A DNA stretch of 61,188 nucleotides from Patescibacteria group bacterium. GTDB taxonomy: Bacteria > Patescibacteriota > Minisyncoccia > Phycocordibacterales > SBAW01. A program made the position numbers and the translations under genes. Positions 56,835-60,660 of this stretch are shown here, one piece after another; position 1 is the first letter of the stretch; each line of letters starts with the position of its first letter. The notes under the pieces were generated by a model. That model was not told the DNA's origin and did no database searches. It saw only the letters and a list, made by a program, of their open reading frames with translations. The DNA is taken from positions 1 to 61,188 of the forward strand of contig JACOWS010000006.1 of NCBI GenBank assembly GCA_016176685.1, given 5' to 3'.

Positions 56835-57254
56835 CTAAAAAAGCTCTTTAGTCAAGTTTTTCGACTCCTTCGGAGTCCCTTTGAGCTCGTGCATGTCCTC
56901 TTCCATGTGGTCTATCTTTGCGAGTATTTGCTCGGCGGTCGACTTCCCCGCCTCGATTATTTCCTTCTCGCTCTTTTCCGCTATTTTTTTGTCGCGCTTA
57001 ATGCCGGAGAGGATTATAGTATCGCCGATAAAAAACGACACCATGAGCCCGGTCGCAAGCAAAATGAGTATCCCAAGAATGATAGAGGTCGGACCCCATA
57101 GCACCGGGTAAAACTCGGCTGTTTCCCACACACCCTTCCACACCAGGACAATACCCACCGCCCCAACAAGCGCGTACAAAATCGGGTAGTGGCTCAACTT
57201 TCCCCGCACCACGTCTTCAAACTTGTCGAAAAATCGTACAATCTTTTTAAACAT
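56835..57254 (-). CDS. membrane protein, two TM plus coiled-coil tail
   Basis: 139 aa; its 5' end is duplicated at 57984-58036. Confidence 0.75.
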   Translation of the reverse strand: MFKKIVRFFDKFEDVVRGKLSHYPILYALVGAVGIVLVWKGVWETAEFYPVLWGPTSIILGILILLATGLMVSFFIGDTIILSGIKRDKKIAEKSEKEIIEAGKSTAEQILAKIDHMEEDMHELKGTPKESKNLTKELF

Positions 57255-57330
57255 ACCCTCTTATTGTAGCAAATCCCTCTACAGACCACACTAATTGCAA
57301 AGCAATGCCACAAGTGTACAATACCCGTCA

Positions 57331-57858
57331 ATGAAAGGTAAAAATGTAGAAGAACGTCTTAAAGATTACGCCGATATACGCTCAAAGGCACTAAAAATTT
57401 ATAATACTTTTGGGAAAGTTAACTGTCCCGCCCTCGGTGGTTATGTCCACTTCACTTCAGAAGGGTTCAACCATCTAGTTTACGGAAGGGCTAAAAAAGA
57501 ACGGGATAAGAGGGCACAAATCGCTAGGTTTGATATGCTAGAGAAAGCAAAGTTCATTCTTGAAGAATCAACTACTTTTCAAGAATACGACGAAGCTATT
57601 GAGTATGTGAGGGTAAACCGACATGGCAAGTATGTTGGTATGAATGCCATAGTACGGTGTTGGGGGTTTGTCGCTATCGTAAGAAAATTTCGTCTAAAAG
57701 TGGTCGTGGTACAGGTTGGTAATGGAAAAATGGAATTTCAGAGCGTTAGACCTGCTTGGTTTATAAAACAATACAGAGACATAAAATTGGTGCAGACCTC
57801 AACAGGAGCAGGTCTTTTAGGTGACGATGATGATGAGGTACTAAAAAACACCACATAA
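57331..57858 (+). CDS. putative BECR-fold (LPD3/PBECR-like) ribonuclease
   Basis: VNCPALGGYVHFTSEGFNHL...R...STTFQEY...WGFVAIV...KVVV...GNG...F.SV.P; a spot count gave 33% GC. The family call is from pattern recall only. Confidence 0.6.
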   Translation: MKGKNVEERLKDYADIRSKALKIYNTFGKVNCPALGGYVHFTSEGFNHLVYGRAKKERDKRAQIARFDMLEKAKFILEESTTFQEYDEAIEYVRVNRHGKYVGMNAIVRCWGFVAIVRKFRLKVVVVQVGNGKMEFQSVRPAWFIKQYRDIKLVQTSTGAGLLGDDDDEVLKNTT

Positions 57859-57929
57859 GGTGGCGTTCTTTAGTGTGTCTGTCTCCAGCGCTTCACTTGG
57901 CCAGATAGGGCTGACGCCCCGCAGACACA
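57843..57929 (-). ncRNA. candidate ~87-nt sRNA convergent with the nuclease gene
   Basis: Promoter TTGCTT-N17-TATAAT (57963-57935); closing stem UGUGUCUG/CAGACACA; terminator ACGCCAC/GUGGUGU + U6 overlapping the ORF stop. Confidence 0.6.
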
Positions 57930-57983
57930 ATCCTATTATACTCAATCAATGTGCGACAAGCAAGTTTTTCCACACTTAAAATA

Positions 57984-58048
57984 TGGCTCAACTTACCCCG
58001 CACCACGTCTTCAAACTTGTCGAAAAGCCGTACAATTATTGTAGCAAA
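57984..58048. repeat. duplicated 5' end and promoter of the 56835-57254 gene
   Basis: 57984-58036 matches 57190-57242 at 50/53; TTATTGTAGCAAA is repeated at 57261 and 58036; the start codon is deleted. Confidence 0.88.
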
Positions 58049-58133
58049 CTAAACTGGTGAGGATATTCTAACCCGTCCGCGAACTCACTTCGCACGCGCG
58101 GAGCGCGTGGTGGCTTGAGATTCTTTCGTGCGC

Positions 58134-58200
58134 TCCGATTCCGTGCCAGTGCGGCGGGGGGTGCCGCGCTGTCCTCGCTTTGATTTTTGAGTGGGCGGCT
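58134..58200. repeat. left inverted repeat flanking lysS
   Basis: Reverse complement of 59707-59753 plus 59784-59806. Confidence 0.9.
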
Positions 58201-58250: not shown

Positions 58251-59702
58251 ATGTCCGACGATATCCGCGCAGAGCGCGTAAAAAAATTAGAAACCCTAAA
58301 GGCGCACGGGATTGACCCCTATCCCGCAGAATCTCACCGTACGCATGAGAACGGAGCCTTTTTGAAAAGTTTCGACTCTTTTTTGCATTCACACGAGCAG
58401 ATTACTCTTGCTGGACGAATAATGTCCTTGAGAGACCAGGGTGGAATTATTTTCGTCGATTTATTTGATGGTACTGCTCGTGTTCAAGCACTAATTAAAA
58501 AGGACGAAGTTGGCGAAGATAGTTTCGAGCTCTTTATGGAGGCAGTCGGAATAAGCGATTTTGTGGAAGTAGCTGGCAGTGCGTTTACGACAAAGCGAGG
58601 TATGAATTCTCTGCTCGGCAAATCGTGGCGAATGTTGTCAAAAAGTTTGCGCCAAGTGCCCGATGAATGGTTCGGTTTGAAAGATGAGGACGAACGATAC
58701 CGAAAACGGTATCTCGATATTCTCCTGAACCCAGAGGTTGCAGAAATCATAAAAAAGCGCTCCACTTTTTGGAATGCCATTCGAGCGTTCATGCTTGAAC
58801 GCGATTTCCTTGAAGTTGAGACTCCTGTGCTAGAAACTAAAACTGGAGGTGCTGAGGCGCGACCATTTACTACACACCATAAAGCACTTGATATGGAAAC
58901 ATATCTGCGCATTTCCACGGAGCTGTGGCATAAGAAATTGATGGTGGGTGGCGTGCCGAAAGTTTTTGAAATCGGGAGAGTTTTTAGAAACGAAGGAATG
59001 TCGTTTGAGCATGCACAAGATTATACGCACTTTGAGTTTTATGAGGCGTATCAAGACGCTCGAAAAGGCGTGCCAATGATTATTGAACTCTATCGCACTG
59101 TCGCGGAAAAAACTTTCGGCACGCTACAATTCAAAATCGGCGATTTTGACGTTGACCTTGGGAAAGAATGGGGGTCGTACGATTTTAACGACCTCATGCA
59201 AAAACAATATGGTTTCGACCCGCGCGCTGTGGATTTGCAAACAGTTCGCGCACGGCTAGATATCGAGAATATTTCTTATGAGCCAAACGCTGATATTGGG
59301 CGCGGAGTCGATCTTCTGTGGAAGAAAATCAGAAAAACTATTGGTGGTCCGGCGATTTTGACGGGTATACCCGTATATTTGGAACCGCTCGCAAAGAAGT
59401 CTGCTAAAGACGCTCGCGTTGTTGACCGTTTTCAAATTTTGATTGGTGGAAGCGAATTGGGTAAGGCGTTCAACGAACTCAATAACCCGCTTGACCAACG
59501 CGAGCGCTTTGAAAAACAGCAGTCGCTTCGAGACGCTGGCGATGACGAAGCGCAGATGGCAGATTTTGAGTACGTAGAGGCAATGGAGTATGGAATGCCG
59601 CCCATATTTGGTTTCGGCGTCTCGGAGCGTCTATTCAGTTTTTTGCTAGGCAAGAGTATACGAGAAGCTCAACTTTTCCCACTGATGCGTCCAAAAGTAT
59701 AA
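58251..59702 (+). CDS. lysS: lysine--tRNA ligase (class II)
   Basis: AGRIMSLR, RYRKRYLD, GGAEARPFTTHH, FRNEG and GMPPIFGFGVSERL. Confidence 0.96.
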   Translation: MSDDIRAERVKKLETLKAHGIDPYPAESHRTHENGAFLKSFDSFLHSHEQITLAGRIMSLRDQGGIIFVDLFDGTARVQALIKKDEVGEDSFELFMEAVGISDFVEVAGSAFTTKRGMNSLLGKSWRMLSKSLRQVPDEWFGLKDEDERYRKRYLDILLNPEVAEIIKKRSTFWNAIRAFMLERDFLEVETPVLETKTGGAEARPFTTHHKALDMETYLRISTELWHKKLMVGGVPKVFEIGRVFRNEGMSFEHAQDYTHFEFYEAYQDARKGVPMIIELYRTVAEKTFGTLQFKIGDFDVDLGKEWGSYDFNDLMQKQYGFDPRAVDLQTVRARLDIENISYEPNADIGRGVDLLWKKIRKTIGGPAILTGIPVYLEPLAKKSAKDARVVDRFQILIGGSELGKAFNELNNPLDQRERFEKQQSLRDAGDDEAQMADFEYVEAMEYGMPPIFGFGVSERLFSFLLGKSIREAQLFPLMRPKV

Positions 59703-59706
59703 TTGT

Positions 59707-59806
59707 AGCCGCCCACTCAAAAATCAAAGCGAGGACAGCGCGGCACCCCCGCCTTGCAGCGCTGTCCCGCACTGCGTTTCCGACGCCGCACTGGCACGGA
59801 ATCGGA
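59707..59806. repeat. right inverted repeat flanking lysS
   Basis: Starts 4 nt after the lysS stop; carries a 30-nt insert relative to the left copy. Confidence 0.9.
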
Positions 59807-59937: not shown

Positions 59938-60660
59938 CTATAACAACTTCGCCAAATAGCGAATTGATTCTACAGATAGTCTGTGGCGAAAAAGTGATTC
60001 ATCAGTTTCTGCAATACCTGGATGGGCGCCTTTGTCCGAAAGCATGCCGTAAAGCGCGTAGAGAGAATCTTTCTCGTTCTGCGTAAGAATGCCCACAGAA
60101 ACGAGTGTTTTAAGTCTCCCATTGGTGCTATCTGATGTCGAAGACTGATGTCTATTGGCAGCAAACTCTATCAGATATTCAAAAGCCTTTCTCAGTTGCG
60201 AGGACATGTCGTCCCATTTTTTCTCCCCAAAGTGGGTTTGTGCCGCTGTTAAATGGTGCCTCAGCACTTCCAAAGAATCTTTACTCATACCTTTTGCTCC
60301 CAGTGTGTTTAGCAGCTCGTGAATCTCGGTTGGGAAACTATTACCACCATTAGTTATATAGAAAATACTTAGATCGTCATTGACTCCTAAATTGAAAGAT
60401 CGCAAATGTTCGTTGACTAAGGCGAGATTAGATTTTGCGGTGTAACGATGCTCGCTGAACAGTAGATTGAAGAACGAATATAACTTTTGTGGATTGCTCG
60501 AATATTTCCTTATAATGTAATTTATGGCTTCGGCTTTTGAAGATATCCATTCATCATTAGAGCCAACCAGGTACTCCTTGAACAACTTGCTCCAACCAAC
60601 ATTGGCTTTTACTTTCCCAAAAATACTTCCAAGCGCTATCGCGTCAGTTTCTGGGTTCAT
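59938..60660 (-). CDS. low-GC hypothetical protein, Abi-C/HEPN-like C-terminal helical domain (putative defence)
   Basis: QLRKAFEYLIE...LYGMLSDKGAHPG resembles Abi_C-type domains; spot count 33% GC; next to tRNA-Glu. Confidence 0.55.
   Translation of the reverse strand: MNPETDAIALGSIFGKVKANVGWSKLFKEYLVGSNDEWISSKAEAINYIIRKYSSNPQKLYSFFNLLFSEHRYTAKSNLALVNEHLRSFNLGVNDDLSIFYITNGGNSFPTEIHELLNTLGAKGMSKDSLEVLRHHLTAAQTHFGEKKWDDMSSQLRKAFEYLIEFAANRHQSSTSDSTNGRLKTLVSVGILTQNEKDSLYALYGMLSDKGAHPGIAETDESLFRHRLSVESIRYLAKLL

Follow-up and report, generated by a model that had tools for sequence, protein, structure and literature searches.

A small structured RNA is co-inherited with a convergent gene for a basic protein in a polymorphic cassette of Patescibacteria

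The subject of this analysis is a two-gene module near one end of a 61,188-nt stretch of DNA from a Patescibacteria group bacterium (assembly GCA_016176685.1, contig JACOWS010000006.1, positions 1 to 61,188 of the forward strand; hereafter the window). The module consists of an open reading frame (ORF) for a 175-aa basic protein and, on the opposite strand, a gene for an 86-nt structured small RNA (sRNA) that converges on it. Across the Patescibacteria, the protein gene and the sRNA gene form one co-inherited pair. In the window, the pair occupies an insert that is present in some strains and absent from others. We judge the chances to be about even that the pair is a new RNA-antidote cassette resembling a toxin-antitoxin (TA) system. 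Patescibacteria have tiny genomes in which most accessory genes lack an assigned function, and here a new family of structured RNA is strictly coupled to a new family of stand-alone proteins. A literature search for the module found no description of it, and it is also absent from Rfam and PADLOC.

Features of the module

The module in the window has the following features.
57331-57858, plus strand: ORF for the 175-aa basic protein, isoelectric point (pI) 9.5 (from the ORF list and the family comparison)
57295-57322, plus strand: putative ORF promoter, TTGCAA-N16-TACAAT (from a consensus promoter scan)
57963-57935, minus strand: sRNA promoter, TTGCTT-N17-TATAAT (from the sequence; positions conserved in the family)
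57844-57929, minus strand: sRNA, 86 nt (covariance-model score 98.8 bits)
57868-57843, minus strand: intrinsic terminator, stem plus U6 (from the fold; shared with the convergent ORF)

Co-inheritance of the protein gene and the sRNA gene

The close relatives of the protein (n=189, 57-99% identity) all come from Patescibacteria-type metagenome bins. The wider family forms approximately 450 clusters at 50% identity, and nearly all of its members are stand-alone proteins of 150-180 aa. The survey covers 57 loci from species-representative genomes, and the neighbouring genes vary between loci. The roughly 105 nt that follow the ORF are better conserved than the ORF itself. Every one of these loci with an intact ORF also encodes the sRNA, on the other strand and at the stop codon of the ORF, and the pairing spans 24-99% protein identity. 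The one apparent exception (L059) contains an RNA that scores 29.5 bits when the search filters are turned off.

The covariance model of the sRNA was built from 27 distinct RNA copies. In the 27-sequence alignment, 98.1% of cells are paired, versus 59% or less for slid structures. In a 56-sequence alignment, compensatory changes are present in 26 of 30 pairs and 97.2% of cells are paired, versus 57% or less for slid structures; this alignment was fitted to the model, so its figures are somewhat inflated, and the margin is large. Protein divergence is tightly correlated with RNA divergence (Mantel r 0.79, with 0 of 2000 permutations as high), and the two genes therefore evolve as one unit. Judged from these sequence comparisons, support for the RNA and for its pairing with the protein is strong. 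The sequence-only reading of the window had proposed a two-part protein/sRNA module and a comparison of the downstream reverse promoter and RNA structure among homologues. Both are conserved beside every intact homologue examined, and with its promoter, terminator and covarying structure the module is genuine.

The window contains a single copy of the module, as determined with the covariance model. Two modules are present at each of two other loci. In L018 (1856-3600), these are tandem copies that are 85% alike over 449 nt, and in L049 (1169-3516) they are divergent copies in opposite orientation. A tblastn search of 50,697 phage and 72,556 plasmid records returned no match, and none was found in IMG/VR contigs; a phage or plasmid origin was rejected on this basis. 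Eight module-bearing contigs (L018, L022, L030, L032, L054, L058, L060 and L063) belong to bins labelled outside the Patescibacteria, with labels that include Odoribacter, Syntrophobacteraceae, Thiocapsa, Gammaproteobacteria and Pseudomonadales. These are either mis-binned Patescibacteria contigs or cases of transfer outside the phylum.

Promoter, fold and strand of the sRNA

The -10 box of the sRNA promoter ends 5 nt before the first RNA nucleotide. The hexamer TTGCTT matches TTGACA at 3 of 6 positions, and the promoter is not listed by the consensus scanner. Among homologous RNA copies, TTG(A/C) is present in 57 of 57 and TAnnnT in 54 of 57, at fixed distances and with varying spacer sequences, and in most copies the promoter is near consensus. 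The RNA folds as a three-way junction made up of the P1 closing stem (UGUGUCUG/CAGACACA), the P2 hairpin (GGGGC-GUCA-GCCCU) and the P3 hairpin, which has a variable loop. A UAAAG linker and then the terminator plus U6 follow the junction. The P2 loop is GUCA in the close group and of the GNRA type in distant members. A search of 57843-57965 against Rfam (4227 covariance models) returned no match at E <= 1.

The sequence-only reading had described most of this arrangement: the low-GC (guanine plus cytosine) 175-aa ORF, the minus-strand promoter, an RNA of approximately 87 nt with a closing stem, a GUCA hairpin and a terminator, the ORF stop codon inside the terminator loop, and full pairing of the terminator on the minus strand only. 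Each of these elements is found in the window. The RNA is 86 nt long, the stop codon TAA is at 57856-57858, and the full pairing of the terminator depends on a G-U pair of the minus strand. The terminator overlaps the last ORF codons, with 16 nt of coding sequence in the window. In other family loci, the RNA 3' end is located from about -35 to +14 nt relative to the ORF stop, that is, from overlap to gap.

The folding energy of the minus strand is -36.9 kcal/mol (z -4.39), and 0 of 200 shuffles are as good; that of the plus strand is -26.9 kcal/mol (z -1.68). Several pairs of the RNA are mostly G-U when the minus strand is read; a plus-strand transcript would have A-C in their place. An element in the 3' untranslated region of the plus-strand mRNA, as an alternative to a minus-strand RNA, was rejected on the folding energies, the G-U pairs and the conserved minus-strand promoter.

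The ORF and its protein

In the window, 8 nt separate the -10 box of the putative ORF promoter from the ATG, and a Shine-Dalgarno sequence is lacking. In the family, 27 of 38 loci have a TAnnnT hexamer that ends 4-12 nt upstream of the ATG, and a motif like Shine-Dalgarno is present in 2 of 38. Because the -10 box is so near the ATG and such motifs are rare across the family, the ORF mRNA is probably leaderless. The contents of the insert are the ORF with its own promoter, the convergent sRNA with its own promoter and the shared terminator; there is no other gene.

The AlphaFold model of the protein is confident (pLDDT 91). In this model, N-terminal helices with two short strands are followed by a long antiparallel sheet and a low-confidence acidic C-terminal tail. 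All of the family is basic, with a median pI of 9.67, as would suit a protein that binds RNA. Two residues, H48 and R58, do not vary among 58 diverse members. Our guess is that the protein binds RNA and is possibly a metal-independent ribonuclease (RNase); for catalysis, invariant H48 and R58 alone provide a hint.

Within Pfam, the only matches at E <= 1 are LPD3 (PF18798) and a glycosyltransferase fragment. The LPD3 match scores 25.0 bits, compared to a cut-off of 27, and covers residues 11-84 only. LPD3 is matched by 19 of the 58 family members, with a best E of 1.7e-6. In the viral structure library BFVD, the top four Foldseek matches are all LPD3 proteins, and these matches are weak (E 0.04-0.18, TMq 0.33-0.42). 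The protein thus appears to be a distant, stand-alone relative of LPD3, a domain of the polyvalent proteins of phages and conjugative elements and the sole family detected for it. Unlike those polyvalent proteins, the module protein is stand-alone, chromosomal, found in Patescibacteria and always coupled to the sRNA.

Loci with an sRNA and no intact ORF

A search of metagenome contigs with a pattern of 26 specified bases, taken from the RNA alone, returned 38 loci. The full ORF is present in 27 of these, and two more have a partial ORF match at a contig end. In L089, the ORF is truncated at its 5' end so that its 3' half is left, and the RNA is perfect (104.6 bits). At least four loci with ample flanks (L072, L091, L093 and L094) have an RNA that scores 80-101 bits, and a six-frame profile search of them found no remnant of the ORF. 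Three more (L070, L095 and L102) have no ORF trace within flanks of only 250-510 nt and are possible cases, and L098, with 49 nt of flank, cannot be judged. Two further ORFs are interrupted by a single nonsense codon, at the invariant Y24 in L014 and at a near-invariant W in L037; in both, the ORF is otherwise intact and so is the RNA. No intact ORF without the RNA was found among the loci examined.

The surroundings of three orphan sRNAs are described here. In L094 (1190-1825), the sRNA (80 bits, no LPD3-like ORF) is located between ftsA and ftsZ and immediately precedes a mazE/mazF-like pair of the same strand. In L091 (731-2505), the sRNA (91 bits) is followed by an ORF for a 92-aa membrane protein, approximately 425 bp from the gene of a large serine recombinase. 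In L093 (5653-6116), the sRNA is convergent with an unrelated 120-aa ORF, which we take from its sequence to be DUF1801/YdhG-like and which ends 17 nt before the RNA 3' end. From this last case, the RNA terminator may serve whatever gene faces it.

Proposed function and alternatives

In the proposed TA-like cassette, two convergent units would share one terminator: a leaderless mRNA for an LPD3-like protein and a strongly promoted 86-nt sRNA with a three-way junction. The protein would be the harmful or effector component, and the abundant sRNA would keep it in check. By the main route, the sRNA would bind the protein via the conserved junction, as in type III systems, and the covariation of the junction argues for such recognition. 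The sRNA would also act, secondarily, as an antisense RNA on the 3' end of the mRNA, which it overlaps at the shared terminator; convergent type I loci offer the parallel. The pair would stabilise itself after transfer (addiction), and it may have a role in abortive-infection defence. The comparisons establish the insertion polymorphism, the pairing, the structure, strand and promoter of the RNA, the co-divergence and the asymmetry of the orphans; toxicity, RNA-protein binding, the biological role and the mode of insertion are inferred. Three further features are counted in favour of the TA-like cassette, namely the accessory character of the module (two-copy loci; orphan RNAs beside a mazEF-like pair and a serine recombinase), the basic protein family and the separate promoter of each gene. 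If a toxin with an RNA antidote is the correct description, the module would have a new architecture, in which a single three-way-junction RNA is convergent with the protein gene, its toxin would have a fold not seen before, and it would provide the first functional handle on the LPD3 domain.

The asymmetry between RNA loss and ORF loss is as expected if the protein is harmful without the RNA. It is suggestive only, because the ORF-anchored and RNA-anchored samples are not equivalent. An RNA that has a function of its own, on which the protein simply depends, would leave orphan RNAs just as readily.

Several other results weigh against a toxin and its antidote. LPD3 has no known function, and Iyer et al. 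(2017; PMC5512222) did not include it in their set of potentially enzymatic LPD domains. The protein has no Foldseek match in the PDB at E <= 0.001 (best E 0.27, TM <= 0.2, not an RNase), and the family profile has 0 matches among PDB chain sequences at E <= 10. There are 0 families at E <= 1 among the PADLOC protein models and no family in NCBIfam or PHROGs, so membership of a known defence, NCBIfam or PHROG family was rejected. The protein is also unusually well conserved, with 55-79% identity across many species; toxins often diverge fast. The overlap between the ORF and the RNA is short, and many distant members do not have it. The RNA is not a tandem-repeat array (Tandem Repeats Finder, 57150-58100: 0 rows). 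There is no conserved complementarity between the sRNA and the 5' end of the mRNA (mean z -0.58, positions inconsistent), and pairing of the par/Fst kind was rejected with that value. A search for RNA-seq runs that contain the stretch found none.

The sequence-only reading had placed the module in the frame of type I and type III TA systems. The two-part protein/RNA module stands. Of the known systems, it would work most like a type III or convergent type I pair, but it has neither the toxin that defines type I nor the RNA arrangement that defines type III. The module resembles the type III systems ToxIN, CptIN and TenpIN in combining a protein of approximately 150-200 aa with a structured RNA in a small, self-contained, mobile unit. 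As in those systems, the RNA would neutralise the protein by binding it and a role in abortive infection is possible. In type III systems, however, the RNA is a tandem-repeat array upstream of the toxin, on the same strand, and is processed by the toxin (PMC8860590). The module RNA is instead a single three-way junction and not an array. At every ORF-linked locus, it is located downstream, on the opposite strand, with its own promoter, rather than upstream on the strand of the protein gene with a terminator between the two. The module protein has no sequence or fold similarity to any solved protein, ToxN-like toxins among them.

Convergent type I loci include par/Fst-RNA II of pAD1 and txpA/RatA and bsrG/SR4 of Bacillus subtilis, and they share a bidirectional terminator or overlap at their 3' ends. 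The module is similar in that its predicted mRNA and sRNA are convergent, have separate promoters and would overlap by their 3' ends at one terminator. The toxins of type I systems are small hydrophobic peptides (PMC6563280). The module protein, in contrast, is a soluble, basic protein of 175 aa (pI 9.5) that is modelled as a compact helix-and-sheet domain. Moreover, the module RNA has no conserved complementarity to the translation start, and its covarying junction is needless for simple antisense action.

A less probable but serious alternative to the TA-like cassette is a non-toxic ribonucleoprotein, in which the sRNA would be an obligatory cofactor, scaffold or substrate of the LPD3-like protein. 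The protein would then be an RNA-binding or RNA-modifying accessory factor, or an effector of defence or counter-defence, and its linkage to the RNA would not be that of poison and antidote. Strict linkage and co-divergence agree with this alternative, as do the basic protein, a conserved three-way junction suited to recognition by a protein, the lack of likeness to any toxin and the high conservation of the protein. LPD3 also occurs in phage polyvalent proteins that are thought to act early in invasion (PMC5512222). However, convergent genes with separate promoters would be an unusual way to co-express the partners of a ribonucleoprotein. The protein is repeatedly lost or knocked out while the RNA is kept, and the distribution of the module is patchy, multi-copy and cassette-like.

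It is improbable that the ORF encodes an RNase toxin of the BECR fold, the fold of Barnase, EndoU, colicin E5-D and RelE-like proteins; the sequence-only reading had given it this nuclease identity. Such a toxin would be consistent with the invariant H48 and R58, a pair typical of metal-independent RNases, with the topology of helices and then an antiparallel sheet, and with a size like that of type III toxins. LPD3 also co-occurs with PBECR domains in some polyvalent proteins of Helicobacter prophages (PMC5512222). The comparison of structure and profile proposed as a check for the BECR fold was run and gave no fold match: no RNase or BECR member is found by Foldseek in the PDB, the PDB sequence profile search is empty, and Pfam has no BECR or PBECR match at E <= 1. 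A BECR or any other nuclease fold was rejected on these results.

Insertion site and presence/absence polymorphism

The module is located at the 5' end of a gene for a conserved membrane protein. The site has the following features.
57274-57983: inserted cassette containing the whole module, 710 bp (missing from strain L106 at exactly these junctions; low GC)
57190-57273: direct repeat copy 1, 84 nt, the functional copy (from comparison with related strains)
57984-58048: direct repeat copy 2, a 65-nt relic (from comparison with related strains)
56835-57254, minus strand: host gene, conserved 139-aa membrane protein (from the ORF list; 5' end duplicated by the insertion)

Homologues of the membrane gene (n=216) are found in Paceibacteria-type genomes, and a Pfam search of the 139-aa protein returned no family. 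The search for an empty site covered contigs of the closest membrane-gene relatives, which have 91-92% protein identity. In strain L106 the site is empty, with the 84-nt segment present once. To the left of the segment, L106 and the window agree (AATCGGGTAG|TGGCTCAAC...); to its right, L106 goes straight on with what the window has after copy 2 (...GTAGCAAA|CTAAACTGGTGAGGATATTC...). Strains L005-L007 (95-97% identical) and L103/L104 (about 86-88%) have the cassette at this same site. The insert is thus present or absent polymorphically among strains, in agreement with the inserted cassette of the sequence-only reading. The GC content is approximately 0.40 within the 710-bp insert, compared to 0.48-0.58 in the flanks.

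The repeat had been read from the letters as two 53-bp segments (57190-57242 and 57984-58036) that duplicate the 5' end of the neighbouring gene. The identity of 50/53 is reproduced by two methods, and the origin in the gene is confirmed; the true extent of the repeat is longer than 53 bp and comprises the first 65 nt of the membrane gene and 19 nt upstream. Copy 2 lacks 19 nt, equivalent to 57243-57261. Because these include the ATG of the membrane gene, copy 2 is a dead relic. The same 19 nt are still present in copy 2 of strains L005-L007. The insertion is located just upstream of, and partly in, the 5' end of the membrane gene, and 84 bp of the target are duplicated. Together, the filled and empty sites and the recurrent long duplications at gene ends provide a tractable case for the gain and loss of single-gene cassettes, in bacteria that are uncultivated.

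An assembly artefact is ruled out as the source of the repeat, as the same structure is present in independent assemblies (L005-L007, L103 and L104) and its copies are about 10% different. Joints in metagenome run X6 that skip 778-780 bases were set aside as evidence for an empty site. They are ambiguous because their short sides fall inside the repeat and a copy 2 of the L005 type would look alike.

Mode of arrival of the cassette

Of the 73 loci that could be evaluated, 17 have direct repeats of 20 nt or more on either side of the module and 56 have no repeat. In about 10 of the 17, the period of the repeat is 713-1021 bp, roughly the size of the module. The repeats are 20-156 nt long and 85-100% identical, and their targets are unrelated and often gene ends. 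These include 5' ends in the window, L059 and L043 and 3' ends in L038, L050 and L014; other targets are a terminator (L079) and the site directly after a tRNA (L026). There are no conserved ends upstream of the ORF, and no common motif at the repeat boundaries is visible by eye. No transposase, recombinase or nuclease signature was found in the cassette with Pfam, PADLOC, NCBIfam or Foldseek against the PDB. Target choice guided by the RNA was rejected, since shuffled sequences match the flanking repeats over stretches at least as long as the RNA core does. The spread of repeat lengths and identities, the absence of a boundary motif and the failure of the RNA to match the targets are unlike the footprint of a transposase.

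The cassette resembles integron and CALIN cassettes and islands bounded by att repeats in being an accessory unit the size of a single gene at a hypervariable locus. As with both of these, it is bounded by direct repeats, and different cassettes are found at one site across strains. Unlike either, it has no integrase, and its repeat differs from locus to locus, corresponds to the host target sequence and contains no common attC or att site. It is also unlike insertion sequences and transposons, as it has no transposase family, no conserved ends and no target duplication of fixed length.

We give somewhat less than an even chance to arrival as passive cargo, in which the cassette would have entered by natural transformation and host recombination with DNA of a diverged relative and the repeat would be the scar. 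The cassette would have come in by homology-facilitated illegitimate recombination, or as a circle that was excised between the repeats and then re-integrated. This account concerns arrival and is compatible with the TA-like cassette, as the pair would still have its own function. The two repeat copies differ by about 10%, and the relic allele GAAAAGCCG is shared by the window and L005-L007, whose functional copies have other alleles. In L059, the identity of the copies is only 85%, and an in-frame stop interrupts the relic. The locus is also a hot spot with differing content in L005, L105, L106 and the window, and L005 has an unrelated cassette bracketed by the same repeat. The relic allele, the divergence in L059 and the unrelated cassette of L005 favour arrival by host recombination. 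On the other side, the inserted unit fits the module very exactly at many unrelated sites. In addition, the divergence of the copies may be decay after an old insertion, one that L103/L104 share at approximately 88% identity.

That close fit is the reason for keeping a small probability for a self-mobilising protein-RNA element. In such an element, the protein, with or without the RNA, would insert the cassette beside gene ends and generate the long duplications. Repeats in 17 of 73 loci, about 10 of them with a module-sized period at unrelated targets, would agree with self-insertion, as would the polymorphism of the insert among strains and the absence of any other gene inside it. We nonetheless consider it very improbable. 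Repeats of 20-156 nt and 85-100% identity are not those of a transposase with a fixed stagger, and there are no conserved terminal sequences, inverted repeats or, by eye, common boundary motif. Shuffled sequence matches the target as well as the RNA core does, recombinase, transposase and nuclease signatures are absent, and 56 of 73 loci lack a repeat. The unrelated cassette between the same repeat in L005 also indicates that the duplication is not specific to the module. If true, a self-inserting LPD3-like/sRNA element would be among the smallest autonomous mobile elements in bacteria, with an insertion mechanism unlike any known transposase or integrase.

Hot spot and neighbouring sequence

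The hot spot extends between the membrane gene and a tRNA-Glu gene. L105 contains a different short segment there. In L005 (829-2310), a strain that is 95% identical, a second, unrelated cassette follows the first and replaces the lysS region. It encodes a 387-aa secreted protein of the peptidoglycan-binding/TIG type; after it come, in this order, a third copy of the membrane-gene 5' end and tRNA-Glu. The presence of this third copy after an unrelated cassette identifies the locus as a cassette hot spot.

In the window, lysS (58251-59702) is located between perfect inverted repeats (58134-58200 and 59707-59806; 44 + 23 nt, 100%). Runs X1 and X4 contain a contig variant with 33 extra letters between 58156 and 58157, as many as there are in the spacer that separates the two right-hand arms of the inverted repeat. 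The lysS repeat region may be a segment that inverts or was imported, or the pattern may arise from assembly. In four metagenomes, the contig depth of the segment 58041-58174, directly after copy 2, is 10-20x that of its flanks, and many different loose ends occur there. Rfam has no match to this segment, and the only repetition of it within the window is that in the lysS inverted repeat. It resembles a short element that is multi-copy or widely shared. Adjoining tRNA-Glu on the minus strand is a low-GC 240-aa ORF (59938-60660), which has no Pfam or PADLOC match and NCBIfam matches at chance level only. This ORF may be another accessory cassette of the same hot spot.

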